A stretch of DNA of 64,000 nt. It comes from an uncultured bacterium. Its GTDB lineage: Bacteria > Chloroflexota > UBA5177 > JANWHV01. Positions within the stretch are counted from its first letter, which is position 1; each line of letters begins with the position of its first letter. A program made the translations under genes and the position numbers. The stretch covers positions 89,230 through 153,229 of the forward strand of contig CAWHAE010000015.1 of assembly GCA_963827235.1 (NCBI GenBank), in the 5' to 3' direction. The notes below the pieces were generated by a model that saw nothing but the letters and a program-made list of their open reading frames with translations, had not been told where the DNA came from and made no database searches. Positions 6,495 to 63,757 of this stretch are shown here, piece by piece.

Positions 6495-7419
6495 CAGGTC
6501 AGCATGGTGCGCCGGCCTGCCGCGTCATAGGTCTCGTGCAGGTGCATACTCACCTGGCCCGCTGCCGGCGTCGCCGTGGCCGGGGTGACCGTGCCGCTGC
6601 TCGTCGCGGTGGCCGTGGGCTCCGCGGCCGGCAGGCTGTCGGCGGCGATCTCCACCACCCGGCCGGCATCGCGCATGGTCAGCCACAGGTTGCCGGCCTC
6701 GTCGAAGGCGATCCCCGCGGGCACGCTGCCCGCCGGCTGGTCCAGCTGGTACTCGCCGATCCTGCCGCCGGCGTCCAGCTGCCCCACCATGCCGGCCTGC
6801 TGCTCCGTGAACCACAGGCTGCCGTCCGGCCCCACGGCCAGCCGGTCTGCTCCCGAGTTGGCCGTGGGCACGTCGATCTCGCAGAAGGTGCCATCGGCGC
6901 TGAGCCGGGCGATCTTGTCGTTCGCATACTCGTTCATGAAGACGCTGCCGTCGGGCGCCCTCGCCACGTAGCCGTTGCCGCCCTCGCCGGCCAGGGAGAC
7001 CGGGTACTGGGTGACCTGGCCGCTGGTCGTGTCCAGCTTGCCCAGGTAGGCCGGCATGTCGCCCGTGTACGCCAGCGCGAACCACAGCACGTGGCCCGCT
7101 CCCAAGGCCAGGCCCATCGGCGACCCGGTGCCGCCGTCCTGCACGGGCAGGGGGTCGTCCGCCAGCAGGGTGCCGCTGGCCTCCACGTGGGCGATCGAGG
7201 AGCTGCCCGTGCTGTTGACGGACAGCCAGAAGGTGCCGTCGCTGTCCTGCGCGATGCCGGCCAGCTCAGCCCAGGTCGTCGATGCTGGGCAGGGAGACGG
7301 CCGTCTCGGTGCCGTCCTGCTGGATGTGGAAGAGCTCGTCGTAGTAGCCGGCCGCCCAGATCGAGCCGTCGGCGCCCAGCACCATGCCTGCCACGATGTC
7401 GTAGCCGGGCGCGGTGAAG
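6495..7419 (-). pseudogene. Tip-less orphan fragment of the main rhs gene (Vgb-like propeller plus first YD repeat)
   Basis: Near-identical to about 29480-30410; frameshift near 7270; homology stops after YDAAGRRT. Confidence 0.85.
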
Positions 7420-7631
7420 CACTCTCTACACGGCAGTGGCAGGCATTGGTGCCGGACACCATCACCCCACTTCCACAGCACAGGCGCCAAGGTTGCAGCA
7501 GGGAGGATGCGCAGTGTTTCAGCGTGCTGTGCCTTGGGGTGCAAGCGCCGAAGTACTTTGGGCCAACACAATGGACCTACAGGCCGGCACAGGGTCTGGC
7601 CGCTGCGTGCAGGGTAAGGAGCGCGAACTAC

Positions 7632-7997
7632 TTAGTACCTGTCGCCGGCAGTCGTGCTCGGCAGGTCGAAGGCGATGAGGAGTGCCTGTTCGATGCCGGC
7701 GATAGCGGTGGCGCTGAGCATGCCGAGTCTGCGCAGCAGTCTCCCGTGACTGAGCACCCGAACCTGTTCGCCCAGAGCGATAGAGTCTGTGCTGAGACCG
7801 CCATCAGGACTATGCAGAAGGATTTGGCTGGGGTAGATGCGCTGCCCACGGTAGGTCGTGCAGGGGACGGCGAGCACTATCCCGCTGTTCGCATTGATCG
7901 CGTTGCGGGAGACGATGACGACCGGTCGACTGCCTGCTTGCTCGGACCCTTCGGTCGGATCCAGCCGCGCGCTGTACACCTCGCCGCGCAAGATCAT
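7632..7997 (-). CDS. mazF: PemK/MazF-family toxin
   Basis: RGEVYSARLDPTEGSEQAGSRPVVIVS...VPCTT...SIALGEQVR; 4-bp overlap with the upstream antitoxin. Confidence 0.9.
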   Translation of the reverse strand: MILRGEVYSARLDPTEGSEQAGSRPVVIVSRNAINANSGIVLAVPCTTYRGQRIYPSQILLHSPDGGLSTDSIALGEQVRVLSHGRLLRRLGMLSATAIAGIEQALLIAFDLPSTTAGDRY

Positions 7998-8290
7998 AGC
8001 GGCTCAGCCGCCTGAAGTGCCTCCCAGCTCGAGCGGTCTAGCCCCTTTTCGAGCAACTCGGCTTCGGCGAGATACTCGGTGTCAGTCGCCATGCCGACGA
8101 AAGCGGCGTCGATCGCCGTGCGGCGCTGCTCCGCCAGAAACCGGCGCAGCGCCTCCGCAAGCAGGTCGTTGCGCGATTTGGCAACACCCGCCTCAATTGC
8201 CCGGTCGGCGGCGTCAAGCAACGCCTTTGGCAGCGCGACCGTGGTGCGCGAAACGTCAGAGTTCATCGGCGTCAAGCCCCTTCTTGGCAT
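7994..8290 (-). CDS. Ribbon-helix-helix antitoxin
   Basis: RTTVALPKALLDAAD...SRNDLLAEALRRFL RHH pattern with acidic C-terminus; start may be ATG 8266. Confidence 0.82.
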   Translation of the reverse strand: MPRRGLTPMNSDVSRTTVALPKALLDAADRAIEAGVAKSRNDLLAEALRRFLAEQRRTAIDAAFVGMATDTEYLAEAELLEKGLDRSSWEALQAAEPL

Positions 8291-9382: not shown

Positions 9383-12300
9383 CTATTTCAGATAGGGATA
9401 GATCTGGCCCGTATAGCTGCCGTTGTTCAGTGCGTTCAGGGCCTTGTCCCGGAGCGTGCCTTGCGGAAGCGCGTTGACTGCAGCTCGCACATCGGGCAGC
9501 CATCTCGCCAACTTTCCTGCGGGCATGGAACTGGCGTAACGACCGCCTGGACCCCGGTATTTCGCATCCCATGCAACAACCTGATCCTTGACCGGGTCGT
9601 ACGTGATGAAGTCAGGCCCTGGAGCGGTCACCGCGCCGGGCGCTTTGACGCCCATCTGCCCAAGATCATTCGTCGCGTACTGGTAGCCTTGGTACTCGCC
9701 AATTGCGGCGTTCTGATGGATTATGTTCGCGCCGCAATAGGCATTATGCACCAGCACGCGTGCCAACCCCACGAAATAGTCGTGGTCGGCGGCCACGGTG
9801 AGCGTGTACACCACAGCGTACCCGGCGTGCTCGTCGATGGCCAGGATCGTGACGTCCTTGCCCGCCTCGGTGCGTAGCGTGTCGCCGACCCGCAGCTTGC
9901 CGGCTTCCACCCAGTCGGCGTGCTTGCTGCCGGGGCCAGTATCCACGAAGAACGGATGGTTGGCGGTCACCTTGATCGTGCTGCCGTCCGACAGGTGCAG
10001 CGCCAGCAGCGGCGAGACCGGTTTGACGATGAGGGCTTGCACCGGTTCCGCTTCTACCTGCTTGGTGGCAGGGTTCTCCGCCAGGACCTTGTCGCCGACC
10101 TTGAGATCCTCGATGGCCACCGAGCCATGGTCCGTCTGCACCAGCGTGCCCGCCGGGAAGCAGGTCTGATTGGTGCCCCTGCACGCGCCGACACAGGGCG
10201 TCTCACTCTGGTCCCCAGTCTCCGACTCGCGACTCAGTCGCTGGAACGCTTCGGTGAGCTTCTGCCTGGAGGCAGCGGTAGCCTCCTTGACAAACGTCCC
10301 GGCAGCGTCGAGGAACTCCCAGTGCCGCATCCCCTGGTCCGCGATGGCACCGATGATACTGCGGAGGCCGGCCACGGTCGGCGAGACAACCTTGCTCCCG
10401 ACGTAGCGCAGGATGGGTCCGCCGACCAGACTGGTGCTGACGACAAGGGCGGCATCAGCGCAACCCAGCGGCCCGGTGTCACGAGCGGTGCATTGCTTGA
10501 CCGGCATGATGAAGAAGTTGTCCGCGATCAGCGCCGGTGCGTCGATACCGCTTGCCCAGAGGAAGGCCAGGATGTGCGAGCCGCCGCTCGACGAGTTGTA
10601 CCACTGCCGTGTACTCGCCTCATTGCCGTGAATAGCCTCCTCAAGCCAGCCGGCTGCCTGGGACAGCTCGTCGGCGCCGTTGAGGATGTCGCCGCTGATC
10701 GCATTCAGCGCGCACAGGGTGGGCGACTTCTCACAGACGGTCTGGTTCAGGTTCTGGGTGAAGACGATGACACCGGGCTGGAGCTGCCAGGCCTGCAAGA
10801 AGGAGCCCGGTGAACGACCGAGCCGGATGTTGACCGCAGGATCACCGTCAAGGGTGGTCAGCGTGGCAAACTGGGTGCCGGCCTTGGGCGGGAAGTCGTC
10901 GCCGGGCCGGAGGTCCGCATGGACGATGCTACCGGAGCAATCCGGGCTCTCCATGTTGACGTAGTCGTAGTTGCACTTCCAGGAGGGCCAGAGCATGCCG
11001 AACACCTTGGCGTCGCGGATGATCTGGTTGACCTTGGCCGTAAAGCCGTTTCGTGGCGCGTCTGCGCGCTCGATGTCCCAGTATTCACCGTCCTTGAGGT
11101 CGACCACGTCGGCCGCGTAGGTCGATGCGCGCAGAGCCGCCTGGGTATGCCAACAAGACTTGCTCGCGTTTTCCTTGAGCACCGGGATCCAGAAGCCATA
11201 CTGGCCGGCATCGCTCAACACGCTGCTGGAGGCGGTGGAGGATGTCCGGCGCCACACGGAGTCCAGGTAGCCTTGCTGGGCCTGGGCGATCTGACTACCG
11301 AAGAAATAGCTTGCCTGGCCACCGATACTGCTTTCCTCGATGTAGTCGCCGTAGTAGTTGCCGGCATCGAGAGGGAACGTCCACCCCTGTCCACTCGGAT
11401 CCCTCACATCCGTGGGCATATTCCCCGCGTACTGGTAGGGGTCGAGCGTCACCGGCACCTGCGGGTCGGCAGGCAGCGGATCCACGCTCTCGAACTGCCC
11501 CTCGCTGCGGGCTGTACTCCCGGGCCCGCATGTCATAGGTGCCGGCCGCCGCGTCGTAGTACTGGCCGGCGAACCCGAAGGGCTGGCTGCCCAGCAGGCC
11601 GGCGAGCAGCGTGGCGCCGCTGCCGGTGGACGTGTCCGGGTTGGGCCGCGCGTTGCCCCAGGCGTCGTAGGCGCCGGCGCCAATGGTGGCGCCGGTGGGG
11701 TCGGTGACCAGCCGCACGCTGCCCAGCAGGTCCGTGCCCAGGGTGGTGATGCGACCGGTGCTCAGCGTGTAGCCCGCTAGCGGTGCCTGGCCGCTGCCCG
11801 GATTGAGGTAGGCGTAGTCGGCACTGCCATCGGAGACCAGGTCGGACATGCCGGCCGCCAGGTCCTGCGCGCAGTTGGAGAGAGTTGGCGTGCCGCTTGA
11901 GGCGTCGTAGCTGCGCAGGCGACCGCCCTGCCCGTCGTAGACGAAGGTGAGGTTGGTGGTCGGGCCGGTGATGGCCACCAGCTCGTTCCGAAGGTCGTAG
12001 GTGTTGGTGATCGTGCCGGTCTGTCCGGTGCTCCCCACCTGGTTGCCCGCGACATCATACGTATAGGCGGTAGGTTCGCCCGGGCCGACGTCCGAGGCCG
12101 TCGAGGCGCTGGTCAGCTCGTCCGCCGCGTCGTAGCTGTTGGCGGTGACGGTGGTGGAGAGGGCATCGGTGGTGCTCAGGGTCACCGTGCTGGTGATGAC
12201 GGTGCGGTTGCCGGCCCCGTCGTACGCGTCCTGCTCGCTGCTGCCGTCCGGGTAGGTGGCCGATCATCAGCTCGCCCGCCGGGTCGTAGGCAAGGCTGGA

Positions 12301-13098
12301 CGTGCCCCAGGAGTCGTCGATACCCGTGCGCTCGCCCGGCCGCGTCCAGGGTGTCCGTCTGGCTGAACAGCACGGTGCCCGAGATGCTCACCGTGGTGTC
12401 GATGGCCCGGCCGGCGCTGTCGTAGCCCCACACCTGGCTGGTGCCGTTCGCCGCCTGCAGCCGCGTCAGGTTGCCCGCCTTGTCGTAGCTCGCGTGACTG
12501 GTGTTGGGCGCCGCTCCCGGCTGGGTCAGCGTGCTCACCCGCCCCGCCGCGTCGTAACTCCACGTCGCGGTCGTGCCCGTCCGGGTAGGTCAGCGTGGTG
12601 CGCCGGCCCGCCGCGTCATACGTCTCGTGCAGGTGCATGGTCACCTGGCCCGCTGCCGGCGTGCCGGCCGTGGGCGTGGCCGTCGTGACCGTGCCGCTGC
12701 TCGTGGCGGTAGCCGTGGGCTCCGCGGCGGCAGGCCGTCGGCGGCGATCTCCACTACGCGGCCGGCGTCGCGCATGGTCAGCCACAGGTTGCCGGCCTCG
12801 TCGAAGGCGATGCCGGTGGGCACGCTGCCCGCCGGCTGGTCCAGCTGGTACTCGCCGATCCTGCCGCCGGCGTCCAGCCGCCCCACCATGCCCGCCTGCT
12901 GCTCCGTGAACCACAGGCTGCCGTTCGGCCCTACGGCCAGCCGGTCCGCCCCCGCGTTGGCCGTGGGCACGTCGATCTCGCCGAACGTGCCATCGGCAGT
13001 GACGCGGGCGATCTTGTCGTTCGCATACTCGTTCATGAAGACTCTGCAGTCGGGCGCCGTCGCCAGGTAGCCGTTGCCGCCCTCGCTGGCCAGGGAGA
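9383..13098 (-). pseudogene. Orphan Rhs cassette A: partial Vgb + Rhs core + DPSG + linker + HINT + PD-(D/E)xK-like nuclease tip
   Basis: Track ORFs 12641-13168, 12182-12538, 11295-12185 and 9383-11683 join by frameshifts; HINT at 9743-10162; tip GPDFITYD...WDAKY. Confidence 0.85.
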
Positions 13099-15808
13099 TG
13101 GAGACCCCTAGCAGTCGGCAGGCTGGCCGCCATTTGATCCAACACCATGGCCGAACGAGCCTGGCCAACTATTGGCGACTATCCCTCCGCGCGCCGGGGA
13201 TCGTGTTGAAGCTCTCTAGCAACTCCACTGGAAAGCCCGAATCCCGCTGAGGATCCCGCGCAAACCGCAGGTAGAACAGATCCCTGCCCCAGTGCTCGAG
13301 CCGTGCCACGTCCTGGGAGGGCACGGTCGTGGGATCACCGCTAGCAAAATGAGATCTGAGAAGTACATTCCCCCAGTACAACCGAGGTATGAACCTGTCC
13401 ATGGTGTATTCACCGAAGCCGTAGTCGTTCCCGGTGCGATCGTGGTACCTCATGTCGATGAGGTCTGACCGGTATAGACCACCCGCCTTCGGCTCTGACC
13501 AACCCACATCGTACTCAATACAACCGTAAATCGCTGACGTCAACTCCGCGAGGGTCCTGGTGTAGCTCTCCAGGGTCTCCATGCGCTGAGCGATCAGCTC
13601 TCTGCGCATAGCTAGCACTACATGGTTGTCCGCGCCTACAGTCGGCTGCTGACTATAAGCGGTCGGTCCGAGCTTGTGGATGCCCGCGTATACTGCCGGC
13701 CAGTCGCTGTCAGAGATAGCCTTATCGAATAGCTCAAAATAGCGAAAGATCCCGCCCTTGATGGCGCCGAGCCAAGCCTCTAGCAGCTTGTCGCTCAACT
13801 GCGCGCTTCGAGGGGCAATATTCCGTGAGCGCGGACGATTGATGCGCCCGCGGCACTTGAGCGGACGACCGGGGATTCGAACAAACCCAGCAAGTGACTC
13901 AACGAGTTCCCGGAACAGGTCGTCCGAGATCACGCTCCTGGGTTCTTCTCTTCCGAACAGCAGGATCGTGGAGTAGCGAGGTTCCTCCATCATGGCAGCA
14001 CCAAGAGGCTCTCGGGTGATTCGGGCGGCGGTGGTATCGGTATGAGCTTCCCAGTTTGCGGGTCCCGAACATATACGTCGCCTGCATTGCGTATGCGAAT
14101 TGTTCTTGTAAGCTGAGGATTCTTGTTGGCTGCCTGACCTGGCGTTGTAACCTCTCGGATCGCAATCACTTGTTTATCCTGTACGACCACGATGTCCAGA
14201 CGTCTGCCCTGCTCGTCCGCTGCATCGATGATCTTCTTCCCTTTTGAATTCAGAATGTATCGCTCCGTGAGTATCTTTGCACCGGGGAAATCTTGTTTCA
14301 CGATTTGCACGGCCCGAGCTTCCCTGGTCATACTAGTCGCCTTGAGTCTCGCTCCCTTGGACAGCGAGGATTTCAGCTCATCGCGCTCCGCCTGACCGAG
14401 GAGTTCGCTTCTGTCGTTGCTCGTGACAATTACGTTGGTCTCAGCTCGCAGGTCCGCTACCACGCCGTCAGCGGTATCCGAGTCAAGCAGCGCACTGTCC
14501 GCGAAGAGGCTTACCTTGCCGGTCGCGGACAACGCGGAAATCACCTTGATCGGTAACGCATTTATGAGCGTGCCGAGCAATGCGCGGCCCTGACACCAGT
14601 GGTCACTACTTGGGCACTCTGACACGCCACCGAACGCCACCATGTCTATGGCGCAGGCGAGCACGGAGACGCCCAGTGGGCAGGCGCTTACGGGAGCCAC
14701 GTTGCCCGGCGTGGGGACTGCGCACGCATTCCCGGCGCCTGGCACCAGCTTGCACACCCGGTAGCCGATGATACCAGGGAGTTGTTGAGAAGCGAGAACC
14801 AGGTATACATCGGACGCCGTGGACACAAGCAACTGCGAAAATGCGCTGAACACAAAGCGCCTGCCGCTGAGTTCATCGCCGGTTGACAGGGGGTAGCTCT
14901 TGCCTCGCTGCAGGCTGACATGCGGTGTTGCCACGCACTCGGTGCCCCGATGCCAGGACAGTCCACGCTGCGCGGCACTGAGACCAAGGAGGTTCATGTC
15001 CAGGCGCGAACCGATGTCGTAGTCGATGTTGACGATGTCGTACATCTCGCCGTAAACGCTGCCTTGATAGGGCATCGGGTCCATGCTCACTAAATCAGCG
15101 TGAGCAGGCCCCACCAGGTGACCTGCGTTGTCCGGCATGGGGAGCGTCACGTCCGCCATGCTGCTGTGGGTCGTGTCATGAGAGAGGAAGTCGGTCTCGA
15201 TACGTTCCTTGATGAGATCCTCGTCCTGCGTGGTAGCACCGCTGTACACGGCCCATCCCTGCCCGCTCGCGTCCGTCACGTCCGTGGGCACGTTCCCCGC
15301 GTACTGGTAGGGGTCGACGGTCACCGGCACCTGCGGGTTGTAGGACTGTGGATCCTCGCTCTCGAACTGCCCCTGCTGCGGGCTGTACTCCCGGGCCCGC
15401 ATGTCATACGTGCCTGCCGCCGCGTCGTAGTACTGGCCGGCGAACCCGAAGGGCTGGCTGCCCTGCAGGCCGGCGAGGAGCGTGGCGCCGCTGCCGGCGG
15501 ACGTGTCCGGGTTGGGCCGCGCGTTGCCCCAGGCGTCGTAGGCGCCGGCACCGATCAGCGCGCCGCTGGGGTCGGTGGCGAGGCGGACGCTGCCCAGGAG
15601 GTCGGTGCCCAGGGTGGTGCTGCGCTGGGTGCTCAGGGTGTAGCCTGCCAGCGGCGCCTGGCCGCTGCCCGGATTCAGGTAGGCGTAGTCTGCACTGCCG
15701 TCGGAGACCAGGTCGGACATGCCGGCCGCCAGGTCCTGCGCATAGTTGGTGAGCACCGGCGTGCCGCTTGACGCGTCGTAGGCGCGCAGGCGGTCGCCCT
15801 GCCCGTCG
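9743..15808 (-). repeat. Left copy of ~6.07-kb inverted duplication (right copy 53143-59217)
   Basis: Identical 274-aa immunity protein and toxin-B tip; linker+HINT nearly identical. Confidence 0.95.
13169..13993 (-). CDS. Putative immunity protein for cassette B (274 aa)
   Basis: ATGA overlap with the toxin stop; identical copy at 54961-55785. Confidence 0.8.
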   Translation of the reverse strand: MMEEPRYSTILLFGREEPRSVISDDLFRELVESLAGFVRIPGRPLKCRGRINRPRSRNIAPRSAQLSDKLLEAWLGAIKGGIFRYFELFDKAISDSDWPAVYAGIHKLGPTAYSQQPTVGADNHVVLAMRRELIAQRMETLESYTRTLAELTSAIYGCIEYDVGWSEPKAGGLYRSDLIDMRYHDRTGNDYGFGEYTMDRFIPRLYWGNVLLRSHFASGDPTTVPSQDVARLEHWGRDLFYLRFARDPQRDSGFPVELLESFNTIPGARRDSRQ

Positions 15809-16352
15809 TAGACGAAGGCGAGGTTGGTGGTCGGGCCGATGATGGCCACCAGCTCGTTCCGCAGGTCGTAGGTGTTGGTGATCGTGCCGGTCTGTCCGGT
15901 GCTCCCCACCTGGTTGCCCGCGACATCATACGTATAGGTGGTAGGTTCGCCCGGGCCGACGTCCGAGGCCGTCGAGGCGCTGGTCAGCTAGTCCGCCGCG
16001 TCGTAGCCGAAGCTGGAGGTGCCCCAGCTATCGTCGATGGCCGTGCGCTCGCCCGCCGCGTCCAGCGTGTCCGTCTGGCTGAAGAGCACGGTGCCCGAGA
16101 TGCTCACCGTGGTGTCGATGGTCCGGCCGGCGCTGTCGTAGCCCCACACCTGGCTGGTGCCGTTGGCTGCCTGCAGCCGCGTCAGGTTGCCTGCCTTGTC
16201 GTAGCCGGCGTGACTGGTGTTGGGCGCCGCCCCCGGCTGGGTCAGCGTGCTCACCTGACCCGCGGCGTCGTAGCTCCACGTCGCCGTGTGCCCGTCCGGG
16301 TAGGTCAGCGTGGTGCGCCGGCCCGCCGCGTCATACGTCTCGTGCAGGTGCA
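13990..16352 (-). pseudogene. Orphan Rhs cassette B with REase-like tip, no HINT
   Basis: Core starts at HLHETYD; amber stop at 15988-15990; DASG cleavage-motif variant; tip E...GRRLDIVVV...EVT...K..Q. Confidence 0.85.
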
Positions 16353-16414
16353 GTGGAGATTGAGCCCGAACGTCGGGTTCCCTTCAGTGGCTGGCTCGGA
16401 GCCCGATCCGTTTT
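16353..16414. repeat. 62-bp non-coding leader at the 5' edge of cassette B (copy at 19969-20030)
   Basis: 61/62 identical; internal hairpin GAGCCCGA-ACG-TCGGGT(T/A)C. Confidence 0.85.
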
Positions 16415-17288: not shown

Positions 17289-17314
17289 AGCACCTCCAAC
17301 GTTGTGAACGATTG

Positions 17315-23861: not shown

Positions 23862-25581
23862 GGGAGCGCCTCAGCTTTGTGTAGCTGAGGCTGTTGATGT
23901 TCAGGCTGAGCGCCGGTGACTGACGGCCACGCGACCCCAATAGCCCTTCCCCTTGCCCCAGGGTTTGCCGGTGGAGACGATGCGCTGCGGTGCGATCGGC
24001 GGTGCTGCGCTGTCGGCGGGCGTCGGATCAGTCGGCGCTGGCGCCGGTGCCGCATCCACAGCCGGCCACAGGCCGGGCAACGCATCGGCGGCGGGGAGCG
24101 CGCGCAGGCGGGTGAGGGGTCGGCTGGCCCAGAACATCGCCCAGCGGCCGTGGCCGCTCTGGTGCAGTGCCCGCAGGTTGGCGATGGCCTGCGCGCCCTG
24201 GGGCGTCCAGCGCATGCCGGCCCCCTTGGCGCGCTTGCTGATCAGCTGCTTGCAGCCGCTCTCCACCGCGCCCGAACCAATGGGCAACTGGCGGGCCACG
24301 AAGCGCGGGTAGTCCAGCCGGTCCGCGTTGTCCGTGAAGTACTCCTCCAGGTTGCGGCGCACGACGTCGTGCGCTTCCGCGGACAGGTCGGGCCGCGCCA
24401 GCGGGGCCTGCAACGCGGCGAGCACCGGCGGCGCGCCCTGCTGCAAGAGGGTGTGCCGCTGTTCGGCCTACCAGGCACGCGCCGGCAGGCTGCCCGCGCC
24501 ATACACCGCGCTGGCTACCTCGGCCAGCTGCTCGCTGGCGTGGTAGAAATCAACGATCTCCACCACCGCAGTGCCCGGGTGGCTGAACTGCGTGCGCGCC
24601 TGCTTCCAGATCCAGCGCGCCCCGTCGGCAATCACGACCACTTCCTGCACGCCGCGCGTGAAGCCGGCGCGCCAGGCCTCCCGGGTCAGGCGCGGAAAGA
24701 AGGCCTCGCTGCACTCCAGCCCGGCGCAGAAGCCGGATGGCCCCAGCACGAGTGTCGCGCGTGCCGTCGCGGCATCTGCGCGCACCGCCGGGCCCAGCGC
24801 CGCCACGCGGCCCACCGTCATCTCGCGGTAGCCGTCTTGCAGGGGCGTGTGCACGCCATCGGTCTCCACCACCAGCCGCGTGGGCACCGCCTGCGCCGGC
24901 ACCGCCCATTGCGTGCGGTCGGCCTGCTCGTGCTCGATCAGCGCACCGAGCCCTTCGGCCAGCCGCCGGATGGTCTCCTTGGCCACGTGCACCCCGACGC
25001 TGCTCGCCACACTCGCGCGCGCCGCGGCGAAGGAGTCCTGCTGCGCCTGCTCGCACACCACCTGGGCCAGGCCCGGCGAGAGCTGGCCGGCGCCCAGCCC
25101 CAGCACACAATCCAGCGGCGCATGGCCCGCCTGGCAGCGCGCGCAGTAGAACGTGGGCCGCATGAACCGATACTCACCGACCAGCCTCAGCACCGTCCGC
25201 CGCCGCTCCCGCCCTACCAGGTGCAGCTGCCGGCCACACTGCGGACAGCGGCTCGCCACCCCTTCCGGCCCTTGCGCGCGCGCCTGCAGTACCACGCCCT
25301 CCACGGCGCTCCCTACCTGCCGCAGCACCTGCTGCAAGGCCCGCTCCCCGGCCAGCAAATCACCCGTCAGCAGCACTTCCACCGCCGCCCACAGCCCGGC
25401 CTCCAGGGCTGCCGCCCCGTCCGCCACCGCCGTCGCCAGAATCCGGGTACGCTCCATCGTGCCTCCTCCGCTCGGGCACGCGCGGTTGACAGATCGCTTG
25501 CCGTGCCCTGTAGCCGAGGAGGCTACCTCTTCGCGCGTTACTTTGCCTTAGCCCAGCCGACATCAATCGTGGGGCGCACCC
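23862..25581 (-). mobile_element. ISKra4/ISLre2-like insertion sequence
   Basis: Transposase inside; imperfect ends GGGAGCGCCTCA / TGGGGCGCACCC; ends approximate; no target duplication seen. Confidence 0.65.
23901..25457 (-). pseudogene. ISKra4/ISLre2-like DDE transposase with in-frame TAG at 24468-24470
   Basis: CPQC...CARC, ETDG, ADGARWIW, DFYHA, PIGSGAVESGCK..R.K.AGMRW; the two track ORFs are in the same frame. Confidence 0.85.
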
Positions 25582-47921: not shown

Positions 47922-47935
47922 TTCAGTTACCTCTG

Positions 47936-52729: not shown

Positions 52730-52900
52730 AGCGGCATCTCCTGCAGTCACACGCACACGTACGAAACCGGAAGCAAGCATAGCATGCCGCGAGGAGGGTC
52801 CGCCGAGCAGGCCAGTGACTACAGCCGACCAGATCCAGACGTACGTGCTCGATCACTCCTGTCGTTGGCTCCGGGATCCTGTCCCTCACCGTCGCCTGAC

Positions 52901-53135: not shown

Positions 53136-53142
53136 TCGTCCC

Positions 53143-54964
53143 CGACGGCCTGGGCGACAGGCTGCGCGCCTACGACGCCTCAAGTGGCACACCGGTGCTC
53201 ACCAACTACGCCCAGGACCTGGAGACCGGCATGGCCGACCTGGTCTCCGACGGCAGTGCGGACTACGCCTACCTGCTGAATCCGGGCAGCGGCCAGGCGC
53301 CGCTGGCAGGCTACACCCTGAGCACCCAGCGCAGCACCACCCTGGGCACCGACCTCCTGGGCAGCGTGCGCCTGGTCACCGACCCCACGGGCGCCACCAT
53401 CGGCGCCGGCGCGTACGACGCCTGGGGCAACGCGCGGCCCAACCCGGACACGTCCACCGGCTCCGGCGCCACCCTCCTCGCCGGCCTCCTGGGCAGCCAG
53501 CCGTTTGGCTATGCCGGCCAGTACTACGATGCGGCAGCCGGCACGTACGACATGCGGTCACGGGAGTACAGCCCGACGCAGGGGCAGTTCGAGAGCGTCG
53601 ATCCGCAGGCCTACGATCCGCAGGTGCCGGTGACGATCGACCCCTACCAGTACGCGCGGAACGTGCCCACGGACGTGACGGACGCGAGCGGGCAGGGATG
53701 GGCCGTGTACAGCGGTGCTACCACGCAGGACGAGGATCTCATCAAGGAACGTATCGAGACCGACTTCCTCTCTCATGACACGACCCACAGCAGCATGGCG
53801 GACGTGACGCTCCCCATGCCGGACAACGCAGGTCACCTGGTGGGGCCTGCTCACGCTGATCTAGTGAGCATGGACCCGATGCCCTATCAAGGCAGCGTTT
53901 ACGGCGAGATGTACGACATCGTCAACATCGACTACGACATCGGTTCGCGCCTGGACATGAACCTCCTTGGTCTCAGTGCCGCGCAGCGTGGACTGTCCTG
54001 GCATCGGGGCACCGAGTGCGTGGCAACACCGCATGTCAGCCTGCAGCGAGGCAAGAGCTACCCCCTGTCAACCGGCGATGAACTCAGCGGCAGGCGCTTT
54101 GTGTTCAGCGCATTTTCGCAGTTGCTTGTGTCCACGGCGTCCGATGTATACCTGGTTCTCGCTTCTCAACAACTCCCTGGTATCATCGGCTACCGGGTGT
54201 GCAAGCTGGTGCCAGGCGCCGGGAATGCGTGCGCAGTCCCCACGCCGGGCAACGTGGCTCCCGTAAGCGCCTGCCCACTGGGCGTCTCCGTGCTCGCCTG
54301 CGCCATAGACATGGTGGCGTTCGGTGGCGTGTCAGAGTGCCCAAGTAGTGACCACTGGTGTCAGGGCCGCGCATTGCTCGGCACGCTCATAAATGCGTTA
54401 CCGATCAAGGTGATTTCCGCGTTGTCCGCGACCGGCAAGGTAAGCCTCTTCGCGGACAGTGCGCTGCTTGACTCGGATACCGCTGACGGCGTGGTAGCGG
54501 ACCTGCGAGCTGAGACCAACGTAATTGTCACGAGCAACGACAGAAGCGAACTCCTCGGTCAGGCGGAGCGCGATGAGCTGAAATCCTCGCTGTCCAAGGG
54601 AGCGAGACTCAAGGCGACTAGTATGACCAGGGAAGCTCGGGCCGTGCAAATCGTGAAACAAGATTTCCCCGGTGCAAAGATACTCACGGAGCGATACATT
54701 CTGAATTCAAAAGGGAAGAAGATCATCGATGCAGCGGACGAGCAGGGCAGACGTCTGGACATCGTGGTCGTACAGGATAAACAAGTGATTGCGATCCGAG
54801 AGGTTACAACGCCAGGTCAGGCAGCCAACAAGAATCCTCAGCTTACAAGAACAATTCGCATACGCAATGCAGGCGACGTATATGTTCGGGACCCGCAAAC
54901 TGGGAAGCTCATACCGATACCACCGCCGCCCGAATCACCCGAGAGCCTCTTGGTGCTGCCATGA
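53143..54964 (+). pseudogene. Orphan Rhs cassette E (inverted copy of cassette B tip)
   Basis: Short core arm from DGxGDRLR; protein after DASG identical to cassette B. Confidence 0.88.
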
Positions 54965-55785
54965 TGGAGGAACCTCGCTACTCCACGATCCTGCTGTTCG
55001 GAAGAGAAGAACCCAGGAGCGTGATCTCGGACGACCTGTTCCGGGAACTCGTTGAGTCACTTGCTGGGTTTGTTCGAATCCCCGGTCGTCCGCTCAAGTG
55101 CCGCGGGCGCATCAATCGTCCGCGCTCACGGAATATTGCCCCTCGAAGCGCGCAGTTGAGCGACAAGCTGCTAGAGGCTTGGCTCGGCGCCATCAAGGGC
55201 GGGATCTTTCGCTATTTTGAGCTATTCGATAAGGCTATCTCTGACAGCGACTGGCCGGCAGTATACGCGGGCATCCACAAGCTCGGACCGACCGCTTATA
55301 GTCAGCAGCCGACTGTAGGCGCGGACAACCATGTAGTGCTAGCTATGCGCAGAGAGCTGATCGCTCAGCGCATGGAGACCCTGGAGAGCTACACCAGGAC
55401 CCTCGCGGAGTTGACGTCAGCGATTTACGGTTGTATTGAGTACGATGTGGGTTGGTCAGAGCCGAAGGCGGGTGGTCTATACCGGTCAGACCTCATCGAC
55501 ATGAGGTACCACGATCGCACCGGGAACGACTACGGCTTCGGTGAATACACCATGGACAGGTTCATACCTCGGTTGTACTGGGGGAATGTACTTCTCAGAT
55601 CTCATTTTGCTAGCGGTGATCCCACGACCGTGCCCTCCCAGGACGTGGCACGGCTCGAGCACTGGGGCAGGGATCTGTTCTACCTGCGGTTTGCGCGGGA
55701 TCCTCAGCGGGATTCGGGCTTTCCAGTGGAGTTGCTAGAGAGCTTCAACACGATCCCCGGCGCGCGGAGGGATAGTCGCCAATAG
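54961..55785 (+). CDS. Putative immunity protein (identical to 13169-13993)
   Basis: Same 274-aa translation. Confidence 0.8.
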   Translation: MMEEPRYSTILLFGREEPRSVISDDLFRELVESLAGFVRIPGRPLKCRGRINRPRSRNIAPRSAQLSDKLLEAWLGAIKGGIFRYFELFDKAISDSDWPAVYAGIHKLGPTAYSQQPTVGADNHVVLAMRRELIAQRMETLESYTRTLAELTSAIYGCIEYDVGWSEPKAGGLYRSDLIDMRYHDRTGNDYGFGEYTMDRFIPRLYWGNVLLRSHFASGDPTTVPSQDVARLEHWGRDLFYLRFARDPQRDSGFPVELLESFNTIPGARRDSRQ

Positions 55786-55855
55786 TTGGCCAGGCTCGTT
55801 CGGCCATGGTGTTGGATCAAATGGCGGCCAGCCTGCCGACTGCTAGGGGTCTCCA

Positions 55856-58800
55856 TCTCCCTGGCCAGCGAGGGCGGCAACGGCTACCTCGTCGCGGCGG
55901 CCGACGGCACCGTCTTCATGAACGAGTATGCGAACGACAAGATCGCCCGCGTCACTGCCGATGGCACCTTCGGCGAGGTCGACGTGCCCACGGCCAACGC
56001 GGGGGCGGACCGGCTGGCGATAGCGCCGGACGGCAGCCTGTGGTTCACGGAGCAGCAGGCGGGCATGGTGGGGCGGCTGGACGCCGGCGGCAGGATCGGC
56101 GAGTACCAGCTGGACCAGCCGGCGGGCAGCGTGCCCACGGGGATCGCCTTCGACGAGGCCGGCAACCTGTGGCTGACCATGCGGGACGCAGGCCGGGTGG
56201 TGGAGATCGCCGCCGATAGCCTGCCGGCCGCGGAGCCCACGGCCACCGCCACGAGCAGCGGCACGGTCACCCCGGCCACGGCCACGCCCACGGCGGGCAC
56301 GCCGGCAGCGGGCCAGGTGAGCATGCACCTGCATTACACGCTATGACGCGGCGGGCCGGCGCACTACGCTGACCTACCCGGACGGCAAGACGGCGACGTG
56401 GAGTTACGACGCGACGGGTCAGGTGAGCACGCTGACCCAGCCGGGGGCGGCACCCAACACCAGTCACGCCGGCTACGACAAAGCGGGCAACCTGACGCGG
56501 CTGCAGGCGGCCAACGGCACCAGCCAGGTGTGGGGCTATGACGCCGCCGGCCGGGCCATCGACACCACGGTCAGCATCTCGGGCACCGTGCTCTTCAGCC
56601 AGACGGACACGCTGGACGCGGCGGGGGAGCGCACCGGCATCGACGACAGCTGGGGGACGTCCAGCTTCGGCTACGACCCGGCGGGCGAGCTGACCAATGC
56701 CGGCTACCCGGACGGCAGCAGCGAGCAGGATGCGTACGACGGGGCCGGCAACCGCACCGTGATCACCAGCACGGTGACGCTGACGCACCACCGGTGCCCT
56801 CTCCACCACGGTGACCACCAACAGCTACGACGCGGCGGACGAGCTGACCAGCGCCTCGACGGCCTCGGACGTCGGCCCGGGCGAGCCCACCACCTATACG
56901 TACGATGCCGCGGGCAACCAGATGGGCAGCGCGGGACAGACCGGCACGATCACCAACACCTACGACCTGCAGAACCGAGCTGGTCCAGGTGACCGGCCCG
57001 AGCACCAACCTGACCTTCGTCTACGACGGGCAGGGCGACAGGCTGCGCAGCTACGACGCGTCAAGCGGCACGCCAACTCTCTCCAACTATGCGCAGGACC
57101 TGGCGGCCGGCATGTCCGACCTGGTCTCCGATGGCAGTGCCGACTACGCCTACCTCAATCCGGGCAGCGGCCAGGCACCGCTGGCCGGCTACACCCTGAG
57201 CACCCAGCGCACCACCACCCTGGGCACCGACCTGCTGGGCAGCGTGCGCCTGGTCACCGACCCCACCGGCGCCACCATCGGCGCCGGCGCCTACGACGCC
57301 TGGGGCAACGCGCGGCCCAACCCGGACACGTCCACCGGCAGCGGCGCCACGCTGCTCGCCGGCCTGCAGGGCAGCCAGCCCTTCGGGTTCGCCGGGCAGT
57401 ACTACGACGCGGCGGCAGGCACGTATGACATGCGGGCCCGGGAGTACAGCCCCAGTGAGGGGCAGTTCGAGAGCGTGGATCCGCTGCCTGCCGATCCGCA
57501 GGTGCCGGTGACGCTGGACCCCTACGAGTACGCGGGGAACATGCCCACGGACGTGACGGATCCGAGTGGACAGGGGTGGGCGTTCCCTCTCGATGCCGGC
57601 AACTACTACGGCGACTACATCGAGGAAAGCAGTATCGGTGGCCAGGCAAGCTATTTCTTCGGTAGTCAGATCGCCCAGGCCCAGCAAGGCTACCTGGACT
57701 CCGTGTGGCGCCGGACATCCTCCACCGCCTCCAGCAGCGTGTTGAGCGATGCCGGCCAGTATGGCTTCTGGATCCCGGTGCTCAAGGAAAACGCGAGCAA
57801 GTCTTGTTGGCATACCCAGGCGGCTCTGCGCGCGTCGACCTACGCGGCCGACGTGGTCGACCTCAAGGACGGCGAATACTGGGACATCGAGCGCGCAGAC
57901 GCGCCACGAAACGGCTTTACGGCCAAGGTCAACCAGATCATCCGCGACGCCAAGGTGTTCGGCATGCTCTGGCCCTCCTGGAAGTGCAACTACGACTACG
58001 TCAACATGGAGAGCCCGGATTGCTCCGGTAGCATCGTCCATGCGGACCTCCGGCCCGGCGACGACTTCCCGCCCAAGGCCGGCACCCAGTTTGCCACGCT
58101 GACCACCCTTGACGGTGATCCTGCGGTCAACATCCGGCTCGGTCGTTCACCGGGCTCCTTCTTGCAGGCCTGGCAGCTCCAGCCCGGTGTCATCGTCTTC
58201 ACCCAGAACCTGAACCAGACCGTCTGTGAGAAGTCGCCCACCCTGTGCGCGCTGAATGCGATCAGCGGCGACATCCTCAACGGCGCCGACGAGCTGTCCC
58301 AGGCAGCCGGCTGGCTTGAGCAGGCTATTCACGGCAATGAGGCGAGTACACGGCAGTGGTACAACTCGTCGAGCGGCGGCTCGCACATCCTGGCCTTCCT
58401 CTGGGCAAGCGGTATCGACGCACCGGCGCTGATCGCGGACAACTTCTTCATCATGCCGGTCAAGCAATGCACCGCTCGTGACACCGGGCCGCTGGGTTGC
58501 GCTGATGCCGCCCTTGTCGTCAGCACCAGTCTGGTCGGCGGACCCATCCTGCGCTACGTCGGGAGCAAGGTTGTCTCGCCGACCGTGGCCGGCCTCCGCA
58601 GTATCATCGGTGCCATCGCGGACCAGGGGATGCGGCACTGGGAGTTCCTCGACGCTGCCGGGACGTTTGTCAAGGAGGCTACCGCTGCCTCCAGGCAGAA
58701 GCTCACCGAAGCGTTCCAGCGACTGAGTCGCGAGTCGGAGACTGGGGCCCAGAGTGAGACGCCCTGTGTCGGCGCGTGCAGGGGCACCAATCAGACCTGC

Positions 58801-59589
58801 TTCCCGGCGGGCACGCTGGTGCAGACGGACCATGGCTCGGTGGCCATCGAGGATCTCAAGGTCGGCGACAAGGTCCTGGCGGAGAACCCTGCCACCAAGC
58901 AGGTAGAAGCGGAACCGGTGCAAGCCCTCATCGTCAAACCGGTCTCGCCGCTGCTGGCGCTGCACCTGTCGGATGGCAGCACGATCAAGGTGACCGCCAA
59001 CCATCCGTTCTTCGTGGATACTGGCCCCGGCAGCAAGCACGCCGACTGGGTGGAAGCCGGCAAGCTGCGGGTCGGCGACACGCTACGCACCGAGGCGGGC
59101 AAGGACGTCACGATCCTGGCCATCGACGAGCACGCCGGGTACGCTGTGGTGTACACGCTCACCGTGGCCGCCGACCACGACTACTTCGTGGGGTTGGCAC
59201 GGGTGCTGGTGCACAACGCTGGGTGCGGTCCAGTGCCGAAGGACTCAGTGACCGGCCGCGGTAGCCCCCATAACGACGCGATCATGGATACGATCGACGA
59301 GTATAGCGCAGACGGCTACACGCTCGCTGCGGGCGGCACCAGGAGCGAGCGACTGATACCCATCGACCAAGCTGAGTCGTTCAAGAGCCTGCGGCGCATT
59401 GACATCGTAATGAGGGCACCTGATGGGTCCGAGGTTTATATCCAGGTCGGCAGGACGACTGCAGCTGGTCTACCTGTGAGGCGAGAGATCGAAGCAATGG
59501 TCGACTTGTCGCGTCAACTTGGCAGTCCGATCCTCTTCCGCGCCTACGACAAGGCCGGCACAGAGTTCAGCTTCATGACGGAGCCGTAG
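55856..59589 (+). pseudogene. Orphan Rhs cassette F: partial Vgb + core + linker/HINT shared with cassette A + different REase-like tip
   Basis: Frameshifts near 56340, 56785 and 56975; tip E...RRIDIV...IQVGRT...PVRRE..A..DL. Confidence 0.85.
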
Positions 59590-59591
59590 GG

Positions 59592-60167
59592 ATGGGCGCG
59601 GTGCAACGCGAGTTTGGTCCTGCGGTGCGTTCGAGCGCCCTGAGAATGTTCATTGCGCCAGAGGAGGTGAAGCAGTGCCTGGACATCCTTCGCGCCGAGC
59701 GGCAGCTCGTACTCTTCAAACTCGTCTATGCGGAGAGGTCGATTCGTGGCATCGAACCTGCTGAGATCCTGGACGTCAGGGAGCCGCTGGACCTGATTAT
59801 GATAGCTGACGAGCACTTTGATGTGTCGAGCGTCTCCTGGGCTGATGCAACAGTTTACCTTGCATTTCAGCGCGGTTGGCTGTGCCTCGAGCTGCCCCTG
59901 CGTGTGCCTGAAGTGCTCAGCATGGCGACACTTAGCTACCGCTCCGCCGTCGTATCCGCATCTGAGCTGTTTCGCCGAGCCAAGAGGCAGTTCAGCCGTA
60001 TGCTCGTCCGAGGCGTGGAAGTTGAGGGCGTGCGCCGCGAAGGCTCGAGGAGACCATGGAAGGATGTGTATTACTCGCCAGGCGCGAAGGAGCTAGCCGA
60101 GCGAGGCGTGATCTGGAGACAGAACAGTATTGAGACGCAGCGCTACTACCCAGCCAACCTGTCCTGA
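59592..60167 (+). CDS. Putative immunity protein for cassette F
   Basis: Starts 2 bp after the toxin stop; family not recognised. Confidence 0.75.
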   Translation: MGAVQREFGPAVRSSALRMFIAPEEVKQCLDILRAERQLVLFKLVYAERSIRGIEPAEILDVREPLDLIMIADEHFDVSSVSWADATVYLAFQRGWLCLELPLRVPEVLSMATLSYRSAVVSASELFRRAKRQFSRMLVRGVEVEGVRREGSRRPWKDVYYSPGAKELAERGVIWRQNSIETQRYYPANLS

Positions 60168-60444
60168 AGGGCCGTAGCTCCCACAGGCCGCGAGCACCTT
60201 GCCGACGAACTGGAGAACGCTGTAGGACCGGAGTGCCCACGTCGACAATTGATAGGTTTGCCCCTTGCGTCCTGCATTGATGGTCGCCCGACAGAGGCGT
60301 CAACCATCACTGGGGCATCGTAGTAACACAGACGAATTCATGGCTGAGACCGCTCAAGGCCGAATCAAGACGTTGTTCAGGTCGAGGGAGGGCAGCGCCT
60401 ATTGGGCATCGCAAGGTGGGTGACTATGCGATATACCTGCCCCG

Positions 60445-63139
60445 CACCGATGCCCTCTCCACCACGGTGACCACCAACGCCTACGACGCGGCGGACGAGC
60501 TGACCAGCGCCTCGAGGGCCTCGGACGTCGGCCCGGGCGAACCTACCACCTATACGTATGATGTCGCGGGCAACCAGGTGGGGAGCACCGGACAGACCGG
60601 CACGATCACCAACACCTACGACCTGCGGAACGAGCTGGTGGCCATCATCGGCCCGACCACCAACCTCACCTTCGTCTACGACGGGCAGGGCGACCGCCTG
60701 CGCAGCTACGACGCGTCAAGCGGCACGCCAACTCTCTCCAACTACGCGCAGGACCTGGCGGCCGGCATGTCCGACCTGGTCTCCGACGGCAGTGCCGACT
60801 ACGCCTACCTCAATCCCGGCAGCGGCCAGGCACCGCTAGCAGGCTACACCCTGAGCACCCAGCGCACCACCACCCTGGGCACCGACCTGCTGGGCAGCGT
60901 GCGACTGGTCACCGACCCTACCGGTGCCACCATCGGGGCCGGTGCCTACGATGCCTGGGGCAACGAGCGGCCCAACCCGGACACATCCACCGGCAGCGGC
61001 GCCACCCTCCTCGCCGGTCTGCAGGGCAGCCAGCCCTTCGGCTACGCCGGGCAGTACTACGACGCGGCGGCCGGCAGCTACGACATGCGGGCCAGGGAGT
61101 ACAGCCCGCAGCAGGGGCAGTTCGAGAGCGTGGACCCGCTGCTGGACCAGACGGGCCAGCCGTACGAGTATGCGGGTGACGATCCGGTGGGCACGACGGA
61201 TCCGAGCGGACTGTTATCCGATCCGGCCACAGTCGGTTACTACATGGCCTGGCCGAGTGATCCCAATAACTACAATCTGGTCAAGGATGCGATCATCTAC
61301 GATTACATTAAAGGCGATCCGGCACACCTGACCTACTCCCACGCAGCCAACTCCGGCTCTGCCGCCGGCTCCGCTGACCTGGTCAGTTTCAGCGCATTCC
61401 CCACGCTGGAGAACGGCCTCATAGGCGAAGTCTACGACGTAGTGCCCGACTACTTCGCGCAGCCAGGTAACAACGGCGATCCCACGCACGCTCGGGGAGG
61501 CGCCTTCGGCCCCAATGCCGCCTGCGGGCCGGTTGTCAACGAGCCTGAGTACTTGAGTTGCCAGTATGTTCAATCCCTGTCCAGTCTGCAGAATCTCACG
61601 GCCAGCCCGTCCGGCCTTACGTACCGCGACAATGCCTGGCAACTCCATACTCCTGACATGGACGCGAAGAAGTGCAGCGACACGCCCCCTGCCCTACTTC
61701 TCGGCCGGAGCTATCCCGACTCCTTCACCTCGGCACTGACCTGGTCACTGCAAGGACCAACGTTCAACAGCGCCATGGCGAAGGCTTCCAACAGGACCAT
61801 CCACGGCAGTGCCGTTCATATCTTCTCCCGCCTGCTGGCGCCAGGCCTGATCGGCTTTTCCGTCTGCACGCTGGGCAAGTCCACCGACGGCTACTTCACG
61901 GTGACCGATACGCCCTGCGCGCAGCCGTCACGCAACCTCGCACCCAACACTCCGAGCTGTGCCTTCGGTGGAGCGGCCGCAGGACTCTGCGTCCTCGATG
62001 TATTCCTAGGCAACGCGTTGTCCGACTACGTGCGCTGCCCGTCGGGCGGCGAGGGCAACCAGTGCCGGGCAGCGGCCGAATCGAACGCTTTCTTTGGCAT
62101 CGTCCTGTCAAGCGTGGGAGGCGTGGGGGAACTGGCGCCAGAGCTGGAGGACTTCGACGCAGTCGGGCTTCCGAACGGTATTCGCTCGGTCGAGCAGCTT
62201 AGGACAGCACTGGCGACAGAGTCAAGCGCAGGTGAAGGGAGCCAATCTGCCGTCGCGGTCGTGGAGGACGGTGAGATCCGTGTGGCCACAGAAGCCGAGG
62301 CCAAGGAGCTACCTGCGGACGTGGTCGCGTGCCCGCGCTGCTTCCCAGCAGATACGCTCGTCGCCACGGTGGGTGGTTCAGTGACCATCTCGAATCTACG
62401 CCCTGGCAATCGGGTATTGGCTGAAGACCCAACTACCGGCTTGGTTCGGGTTGAGCGGGTTGAGGCGCTCATTGCTCGACCGGTGAGCCCGTTGCTGGCC
62501 CTAACTCTGAGCGACGGAAGCTCGCTTGTCGTGCAGCCCGACCATCCATTCTGGGTCGATGGCGGACCAGGCATTGACGGTCCTGGCTGGTACACGGCAG
62601 GAACGCTCAGGGTTGGCGACAGACTTCGCACTGCCGCGGGTAGGGACGTCAGCGTTGTCGCCATTCGGTGGAACGCCGGCGATGCCAATGTCTACACGTT
62701 GACCGTGGCAAACGATCATACGTTCTTCGTCGGCAGCGCACGAGTGCTGGTGCATAACACCGACGTGGACGCCGAGACGTTGGCATGCAGCTTGTACTAC
62801 GCAGGCATCAAGAGGCCAAGGAGTGGAGATTACTCGCCGCATCACATCGTGCCCACTGGGGCTTTCAGCGGGAGGAATCTCGAAGCTCAGCGTGCGCTAG
62901 AACGGAGCCAGGAAATCCTTCGGGAAGCGGGTATCGATCTTAACGATGCTCCTAACGGGGTGTGGCTGGAACAGGACTATCATCTGGGAGTACACACCAA
63001 CGACTACCTCGAGAATGTCGCGAATGCGCTCGAGAAAGCGGTTGATCCGAAAACACATGACGTGGACGTGGCGAAGGTGAAGTCGATATTGAGTGAGATA
63101 GCGGTTAGGCTGCAGGCTCGCGATCCTTCGCTGTATTAG
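60445..63139 (+). pseudogene. Orphan Rhs cassette G (open frame): core + HINT + AHH-type HNH nuclease
   Basis: PVGTTDPSG; HINT 62339-62758; tip PHHIVP...GIDLND..NGVWL...H.GVH...Y. Confidence 0.88.
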
Positions 63140-63208
63140 GAGGTCAAGGTCTAGCACCCGCAGCAGTGCGATCGGTGCTTTCCGTTCTCTACATGAAAGG
63201 GTCCGACG

Positions 63209-63757
63209 TTGCGAGTCTTTAGGGTCAAGAGGGACACGAACAAACTTGACGGTTTGGTGCCTGTAGAGACGAGCGGGTGGAAGCTTCTCGACACCGATGG
63301 TTCGGCCCGTGCCGCCGAATGGAAGCCCCCTCAAGTGTTCTTTGATTCCAGAGGCCCACATCAAATCGGGGATTTCGTCCAGTCAGCGCGTTGTTCGGTG
63401 GTAACTAGCCCGCGGGCGACCGCGCTGCTGCGGCATGTGCTGTCGGCAGCGGGCGAACTGCTTCGACTACCATACTGCGATGTGGAGTACACCTTGACCA
63501 ATGTCATCAACGTGGTCGATTGCTGCGATGACTCGACCGCTCTCAGTGCGCTCGACAAGTACGGCATCATGCCAGAGCGTTTGCGCATGACACGGTCGTC
63601 CATCTTCAAGATTCCTCAAACCGCGCACATTGAAGTGCTTACGGTTACGGGGTTCTTCGCGCCGGAGGACGATTTCTTGACACTCGTGGACAAGCACGGT
63701 CTCAAGGGTCTGCGCCCCGTACTGCTGTGGTCGGACGAGGTAGCTCAATCGTCCTAG
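63209..63757 (+). CDS. Imm11/DUF1629-like immunity protein
   Basis: GDF...YTLTNVINVVDC.D...IFKIP...F..LV...GLKGL; follows an AHH nuclease, the usual partner of this family. Confidence 0.7.
   Translation: MRVFRVKRDTNKLDGLVPVETSGWKLLDTDGSARAAEWKPPQVFFDSRGPHQIGDFVQSARCSVVTSPRATALLRHVLSAAGELLRLPYCDVEYTLTNVINVVDCCDDSTALSALDKYGIMPERLRMTRSSIFKIPQTAHIEVLTVTGFFAPEDDFLTLVDKHGLKGLRPVLLWSDEVAQSS

Follow-up and report, generated by a model that had tools for sequence, protein, structure and literature searches.

The closest described systems to the locus reported here are Rhs and contact-dependent growth inhibition (CDI) loci. In the passages available from PMC3150448, the variable C-terminal toxin of Rhs proteins is marked off by a PxxxxDPxGL motif and is followed by an immunity gene. 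According to the text excerpts of PMC3967940, a core of 522 bp with 95% identity was enough, in experiments, for recombination between the main rhs gene and an orphan cassette in Salmonella Typhimurium LT2, and switching of this kind deletes the old tip together with its immunity gene unless the locus has been duplicated beforehand. The same cost is discussed for CDI in the portions seen of PMC4927057; in both accounts (PMC3967940, PMC4927057) a deletional switch to an orphan toxin leaves the cell sensitive to the toxin of its own parents, and prior duplication is the published remedy. We analyzed a 64,000-nucleotide stretch of an uncultured Chloroflexota bacterium, hereafter the window (contig C15 89230-153229; G000:C15), containing one very large rhs gene flanked by two opposed arrays of orphan cassettes, a left arm on the minus strand downstream of the gene and a right arm on the plus strand upstream of it. 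The locus is like the LT2 rhs locus, as portrayed in excerpts of PMC3967940, in having a full-length gene and silent cassettes made of core, tip and immunity gene with a shared core of ~0.5 kb, and it is like the CDI/Rhs orphan modules of PMC3150448 and PMC4927057, so far as their excerpts go, in having a motif-bounded toxin, an immunity gene and orphans that keep upstream homology. In contrast, those excerpts place the orphans in tandem and downstream in LT2 (PMC3967940) and downstream of the main gene in CDI/Rhs loci (PMC3150448, PMC4927057), whereas here cassettes are found on both strands and on both sides of the body, and toxin modules have a further point of exchange where the PT-HINT domain ends. 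The locus is a real, unusual two-armed Rhs cassette locus with demonstrably active homologous inter-arm exchange, and tip switching by inversion would be a sound corollary of that exchange.

Opposed cassettes are also known outside toxin loci. In the R64 shufflon (Rci) and in the tail-fibre segments of phages Mu and P1, a constant N-terminal part receives alternative, opposed C-terminal parts through the action of a dedicated invertase on short sites. The outcome at the present locus would be similar, but no invertase lies nearby and the repeats are long and diverged. In Neisseria pilE/pilS and Borrelia vlsE, surface antigens are varied by non-reciprocal copying from silent cassettes, whatever their orientation. 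The footprint between the two arms described here is likewise duplicative; in contrast to those systems, toxin/immunity pairs are involved here, and the copying seen is between silent cassettes. In the sap system of Campylobacter fetus, opposed cassettes reportedly share a conserved region, and homologous inversion is said to change the expressed variable part without loss of DNA; the promoter-bearing segment reportedly flips between complete S-layer genes, both orientations having been shown experimentally. By analogy, nested inversion of sap may be regarded as the nearest known mechanistic precedent, with the differences that a 14-kb body would flip at the present locus and that inversion is unobserved here. 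If true, an inversion switch at this locus would be the toxin-warfare counterpart of nested surface-protein gene inversions. Titles cited in PMC1950947 refer to nested DNA inversion within conserved 5' regions of the C. fetus sap homologues, and the shufflon is named in the abstract of PMC11852207. Inversion was not mentioned in the searched text of PMC3967940, PMC4927057 or PMC3150448 (the word 'orientation' was absent from that of PMC3150448), and inversion-mediated tip exchange in Rhs/CDI loci was not found in the literature searched, which left subscription journals and supplementary files outside its scope.

The main gene starts with a GTG codon at 42610, with a GAGGAGG Shine-Dalgarno sequence upstream and a Sec-type signal peptide, and stops at 26206, in agreement with the original prediction of a very large rhs gene on the minus strand. 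The domain order of its product begins with the Sec signal, a BNR-like N-terminal region, DUF6531 and 35 RHS-repeat stretches (PF05593, E 2e-270 in the N-terminal open reading frame (ORF), with more stretches in the C-terminal ORF). Further domains are several malectin domains arranged as a run with a ~498-nt period, LamG, a Vgb_lyase propeller, RHS repeats and core, PT-HINT, and a DNase of the NucA/NucB family, whose E value of 1.2e-4 only just passes the cut-off. At its end the main core has the Rhs-associated core domain, closing with the motif PTDxTDPSG, where core and tip classically meet in Rhs proteins. From the 35 RHS-repeat stretches, DUF6531, PT-HINT and the nuclease tips, and from the fact that TIGR03696 ends where DNA homology ends, the locus is a genuine Rhs/YD-repeat polymorphic-toxin super-locus, in which one secreted gene of ~5.4 thousand residues lies between two opposed silent-cassette arrays.

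The four minus-strand cassettes that had been proposed downstream of the gene (L4, L3, L2 and L1) and the three plus-strand cassettes proposed upstream (R1, R2 and R3) were all recovered, and the tipless remnant L0 was added to the left arm. The orphans are 5'-truncated copies with tips of their own, related to the main gene through the core. C15 finishes at window position 64000. When 41 other contig ends were examined, core sequence was found only at the start of contig C12, which carries two more plus-strand cassettes, R4 and R5, the R5 core measuring 2.3 kb. C15 most likely continues into C12 at this point, since no further contig end among those examined carries the core, and the right arm would then consist of five cassettes. 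All nine aligned cores end in ..P(T/V)xxxD(P/A)(S/T)G, exactly where DNA homology stops. TIGR03696 was found in six of the seven tip-bearing cassette ORFs scanned (L2, L3, L4, R2, R4 and R5), and it is missing from L1, in which the core is not in frame with the tip. Among the tips, a toxin family could be assigned to tip A of the main gene (NucA/NucB) and to R3, in which PT-HINT is followed by an AHH nuclease (AHH E 2.7e-12); the other tips had no family match, that of L1 consisting of PT-HINT and an unknown toxin. Immunity genes were assigned by position only, and one of them, the putative immunity gene of L4, encodes a HEAT-repeat protein.

Exchange between the arms is seen in an inverted duplication, in which 15815-9747 (L2 and L1) matches 53136-59213 (R1 and R2) with 96.8% identity over 6085 nt. 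The left copy contains the L1 tip, the L1 core, the L2 immunity gene, the L2 tip and part of the L2 core, and the duplication ends at the truncated core edge of R1 and at the last PT-HINT residues (..VHNA). In its unique tip/immunity DNA, 7 differences were counted in 1600 aligned positions and one in 2200 (8/3800), the single difference being that between the tip and immunity gene of R1 and those of L2. The core stretches inside the duplication have 85-99 matches per 100 columns, so that within the one recent duplication core divergence is approximately 40-fold that of the unique DNA. There is no other possible donor in the genome for the unique DNA and there are about ten for the cores. The simplest reading is a very recent inter-arm copy, with repeated patchy core conversion alongside or afterwards. 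R1, as a near-copy of L2, can offer no new tip, and R2 departs from L1 only in the residues that follow PT-HINT and in the immunity gene.

The cores are mosaic throughout. In a four-gamete test on ten cores, 2000 of 3741 informative site pairs failed, and adjacent core sites were more compatible than in any of 2000 permutations of site order. The nearest neighbour of a core shifts between 100-nt bins, often to the other arm, and that of the main core was R2 or R4 in four of six bins. The arms differ from each other by substitutions, along stretches of 0.4-3 kb without gaps. Moreover, the L1 and R2 proteins are identical at 586 of 592 residues up to ..VHNA, whereas past this point (9747 / 59213) the final ~115-119 residues are unrelated and the immunity ORFs are distinct, indicating that toxin/immunity modules have also been exchanged at the PT-HINT boundary. 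The end of PT-HINT is, as far as these alignments indicate, a second exchange point, nested with the Rhs core motif. Homologous exchange between the arms is real; the footprint, on the other hand, is that of non-reciprocal copying and not of the reciprocal inversion that had been proposed, because cassettes are duplicated and a reciprocal inversion never duplicates a cassette. Copying that leaves the donor intact was seen between silent cassettes only. Even without inversion, the locus shows fast rewriting of Rhs cores, and its toxin modules change partners both at the Rhs core motif and, nested with it, where PT-HINT ends.

The cores had been taken to be near-identical. Instead, their identity to the main core is 79-94%, the longest uninterrupted matches measure 34-211 nt, and most of the longer orphan cores carry 1-nt indels. 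In blastn comparisons, the main core matched R2 at 94.1% over 1732 nt, R3 at 91.2% over 701 nt and R1 at 85.6% over 571 nt; inverted core pairs extended over 439-1732 nt with 86-94% identity and exact runs up to 211 nt, and the opposed copies have in common, as in sap, a stretch of sufficient length for homologous recombination. In 100-nt bins, agreement with the main core alternates between 77-85% and 99-100%, and the in-frame core windows are 79-89% identical to it with patches of 99-100%. In eight of the nine tip-bearing cassettes, 525-924 nt of core are in frame with the tip. The L1 core has five 1-nt indels, the last ~130 nt ahead of the tip; the L3 core has two frame changes (the DNA alignment shows three 1-nt indels, of which one lies at the span edge); R2 has +1 insertions at ~56340, 56785 and 56975; and the R4 and R5 cores have two 1-nt indels each. 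Because of such indels in the longer orphan cores, an intact fusion would be formed only if the crossover fell after the last lesion of the cassette. The most identical tract between the main core and the right arm, in R2 (484 nt at 99%, with the 211-nt exact run), lies upstream of the three +1 insertions, so a crossover there would yield a broken gene. Of 14 indels that break the frame, only 2 lie within the terminal ~575 nt of the cores, a region making up 46% of the surveyed length (binomial 0.013, in a rough test that treats related cassettes as independent). This is consistent with the tip-proximal core having been kept usable, and the cassettes look as if they were kept ready.

An in-frame deletion of 15 nt, common to several cores and located close ahead of the core end (28354 equivalent), divides the cores into two groups, A (main, L1, L2, R1 and R2) and B (L3, L4, R3, R4 and R5). 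Outward from the centre, the order is A, A, B, B, B in the right arm and A (main), B, B, A, A in the left arm.

The reading that we favor, with a probability of roughly 0.55, is that of a silent library shuffled by general homologous recombination, in which inversion is only a possible, low-frequency crossover outcome. Homologous recombination among cores of ~0.6-2.3 kb keeps reshuffling the library, the documented mode being non-reciprocal transfer (gene conversion or double crossover), which is independent of orientation. Crossover is an expected alternative outcome of homologous-recombination intermediates, and if the same intermediates were resolved in this way, with the main core and a plus-strand core as partners, 25-33 kb would be inverted. 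The geometry proposed for such a crossover proved correct: recombination of the main core (28264-30573) with a plus-strand core would put a right-arm tip on the 14.3-kb body, tip A would become an orphan next to its immunity gene, no immunity gene would be lost, and the cassettes between the crossover points would change arm. The expected frequency of this inversion would be low, of the RecA type. If true, an opposed second arm would solve the loss of immunity by geometry alone, since nothing is lost and the change is reversible. Inversion-mediated tip swapping is therefore geometrically sound and plausible, it is unobserved, and no sign of a selected 'switch' was seen.

The data examined (contigs, thin reads and relatives) gave neither a second orientation nor a different joining of body and tip, and no other contig of the genome holds any unique part of the window. 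The sequence was present in a single sequencing run, X1 (word share 0.06), which may come from the source sample itself. Across 44001-64000, 21 short contigs of approximately threefold depth were obtained from this run; its table of joints was empty, there were few loose ends, each in a single contig, and one go-back record (47476->46202) occurred in the letters-between-sides table only, so that the run is too thin to bear on inversion either way. GC skew was flat across C15 and C12 and cannot date an inversion. The absence of a site-specific recombinase, noted earlier for the window, was confirmed and extended: none of the 25 PF00589 matches (tyrosine recombinases) and none of the 10 PF00239 matches (serine recombinases) of the genome is located on C15 or in C12:1-20000, and a dedicated invertase of the shufflon or Gin type was accordingly not found.

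Several points weigh against the favored reading, beside the roughness of the indel-position test. The main gene, taken to be intact in the original prediction, is split in this assembly near 33.6 kb into two overlapping ORFs in different frames (42676..33602 and 33807..26206). The protein sense runs on across one extra base near 33.62 kb, the upstream ORF stopping at 33602. (Programmed frameshifting at 33.6 kb was considered; no supporting feature was seen and no further test was made.) There is a single assembly, a bin of 8.0 Mb in 21 contigs that is 95.9% complete with 9.06% contamination. As a check of its quality, all 10 PF00133 matches outside the locus read through without a stop (10 of 10), and the sole PF04997 (RpoC) match had two TGA codons inside its span; consensus errors in repeats might in principle exaggerate the mosaicism of the cores. 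In addition, with the right arm at the contig end, its continuity is as good as the work of the assembler there, and read support from X1 is near nil, 52672-54005 being uncovered.

The last points bear on the possibility that the right arm is a misassembly, a chimeric contig end derived from the left arm or from the array of another strain and wrongly oriented. It forms the last 11 kb of C15, ~3.8 kb of it are nearly identical to left-arm DNA, the X1 reads leave the 53.1-kb junction without cover, and the bin, 9% contaminated, measures ~8 Mb compared to 4.4-5.4 Mb in genus relatives. We nevertheless regard this as very unlikely, since the junction at 52852-53136 passes from unique sequence, 284 nt without a second occurrence in the genome, into a truncated core, with the abrupt core edge of R1 (residue 1660) beside unique DNA and the join not inside a repeat. 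Furthermore, the R2 toxin and immunity genes and the whole of R3 have no left-arm counterpart, the cores of the two arms are set apart by substitutions in gap-free stretches, and the start of C12 carries the array onward in the same orientation. The R2-specific stretches 59325-59533 and 59638-59923 were present in X1 contigs without differences, and X1, as the possible source sample, is not independent in this respect. The abrupt start of the R1 core would also fit a decaying relic, in which a second, divergent rhs gene has lost its body, the main gene is now a pseudogene, and sporadic gene conversion continues in a layout without function. The frameshift in the main gene, the indels in many orphan cores, the insertion sequence fragment within the array and a deletion scar in the central segment (permease fragment/truncated aminotransferase) are in line with such decay. 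It is unlikely all the same: there is one lesion only in the 16.4 kb of the main gene, so any inactivation is very recent or the lesion is a base-calling error; eight of nine tips are open and in frame with 525-924 nt of core; and inter-arm copying is very recent (8 differences in 3800 nt).

A true reversible switch would go beyond the library shuffled by homologous recombination in that the 25-33 kb would invert at appreciable frequency through a crossover between the main core and a right-arm core, the population would be mixed, immunity would be kept and the layout would be under selection. In its fullest form, no recombinase would be needed, the body would cycle through tips from both sides with immunity kept, and inter-arm copying would refresh the library. 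The geometry is correct, in-frame homology is available with exact runs of 80 nt (R2) and 178 nt (R3) within the productive windows, exchange between the arms is demonstrated, and the 3' parts of the cores are preferentially in frame. Deletional switching, according to the available portions of PMC4927057 and PMC3967940, costs the old immunity gene; the two-armed layout occurred in none of 24 other clusters among the matches listed; and the assembly breaks inside the right arm, possibly from structural heterogeneity. Yet no alternative junction, orientation or contig was seen, the collections scanned contained no sister strains, and the observed duplicates cannot arise by reciprocal inversion. 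R1 supplies no new tip, the productive windows are only 79-89% identical, the best tract, that in R2, would lead to out-of-frame products, and the body is frameshifted. Such a switch is doubtful, both as a selected layout and as a recombinase-free cycle driven by homology.

The two-armed layout is unusual, since the multi-copy Rhs-core clusters of other genomes were single-stranded in 24 of 24 readable cases among the matches listed. Clusters, meaning at least two core domains that share a contig and lie within ~15 kb, were counted by hand on 150 of 257 rows; many contigs in the phylum sample are short, and the strand comparison is indicative only. TIGR03696 was present in 61 of 121 sampled genomes of the same phylum. 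Among 21 genomes in the class, the core was found in only one genus relative, at 61% identity, as a same-strand pair. Genome contigs scanned with the core alignment gave 12 loci with 26-33% identity, and the best match to the main-gene body in the protein collection had 47% identity. When the unique LamG region was used as the query against metagenome contigs, one locus only was found, at 30% identity, and there was no close strain in the collections scanned. In the genus relative G001, the arabinofuranosidase and Cys/Met orthologues are ~590 kb apart, a different contig carries dnaA, and a close orthologue of the glutamine-synthetase-like gene is missing. The genus relatives are non-syntenic at the locus and the synteny comparison is uninformative.

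Table 1. Features of the two-armed Rhs locus, in window coordinates; R4 and R5 lie at the start of contig C12
Feature	Position	Strand	Core	Tip ORF	Putative immunity gene	Core in frame with tip (nt)	Longest exact run with main core (nt)	Remarks
L0, core-only remnant	6431..7418	-						tipless; residues 1134-1467, Vgb_lyase part; outer end of left arm
Cassette L1	8851..13099	-	11499-13099	9383-11683	8851-9369	132	38	
Inverted 6-kb duplication, left copy	9747..15815	.						partner 59213-53136
Cassette L2	13169..16362	-	15208-16362	13990-15909	13169-13993	738	165	
Cassette L3	16788..19978	-	18737-19978	17315-19183	16788-17441	525	40	
Cassette L4	20351..23512	-	22607-23503	21338-23512	20351-21178	924	77	core in frame, ~900 nt
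ISKra4-family transposase fragment	24468..25457	-						profile positions 23-314 of 422; between immunity gene of tip A and L4
Putative immunity gene for tip A	25664..26152	-						position only; no family match
Tip A	26206..28263	-						variable region, PT-HINT, NucA/NucB-like DNase; single-copy in genome
Main Rhs/YD-repeat polymorphic toxin gene	26206..42610	-						two ORFs in this assembly
Main core shared with cassettes	28264..30573	-						residues 1079-1848 of C-terminal ORF
Frameshift in malectin repeat	33602..33640	-						one extra base at ~'..CAT ATC C GAC CTG..'
Central unique segment	42611..53135	both						would flip along with body
Wzy_C/TPR gene	43876-46482	+						central segment
Amidohydrolase	46770-47921	-						central segment
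Glutamine-synthetase-like gene	47936-49324	-						central segment
N-truncated aminotransferase and permease fragment	50360-50560 (join)							central segment
Cys/Met PLP enzyme	51545-52852	-						central segment
Cassette R1	53136..55785	+	53138-53707	53195-54964	54961-55785	567	34	core 5'-truncated
Cassette R2	55855..60167	+	55855-57582	56905-59589	59592-60167	615	80	
Cassette R3	60404..63757	+	60404-61210	60416-63139	63209-63757	837	178	core in frame
Cassette R4		+				612	50	
Cassette R5		+				735	50	

The G+C content of the window is 66.5%. In the central segment, the amino-acid permease fragment (profile 1-100 of 470) runs straight into the class-III aminotransferase, which is without approximately its first 50 profile positions, and the join looks like a deletion scar joining two truncated genes. 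Two minus-strand ORFs in the same segment, 43303-45498 and 45526-47835, had no family match and are Arg/Gly/Ala-rich; they were rejected in favor of the plus-strand Wzy_C/TPR ORF.

A MazF/PemK-like toxin gene (7632-7997, minus strand, E 5e-23) lies between L0 and the L1 immunity ORF. Adjoining the left arm, a BNR/Ycf48-like protein is encoded at 3829-6297 on the minus strand; it resembles residues ~223-565 of the main protein with 41-44% identity and has several paralogues elsewhere in the genome. The genome has 26 TIGR03696 matches in total, hence other rhs loci are present, and an isolated Rhs core remnant with 58% protein identity to the main core was found at G000:C14:353128-353763. Approximately 2.7 kb past the last plus-strand cassette, a DnaA gene is located at C12:10537-12000 (minus strand). 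A second full-length DnaA homologue lies at G000:C16:620717-622147, the two copies being 60% identical, and G001 also has two DnaA proteins, 82% and 62% identical to the C12 copy.

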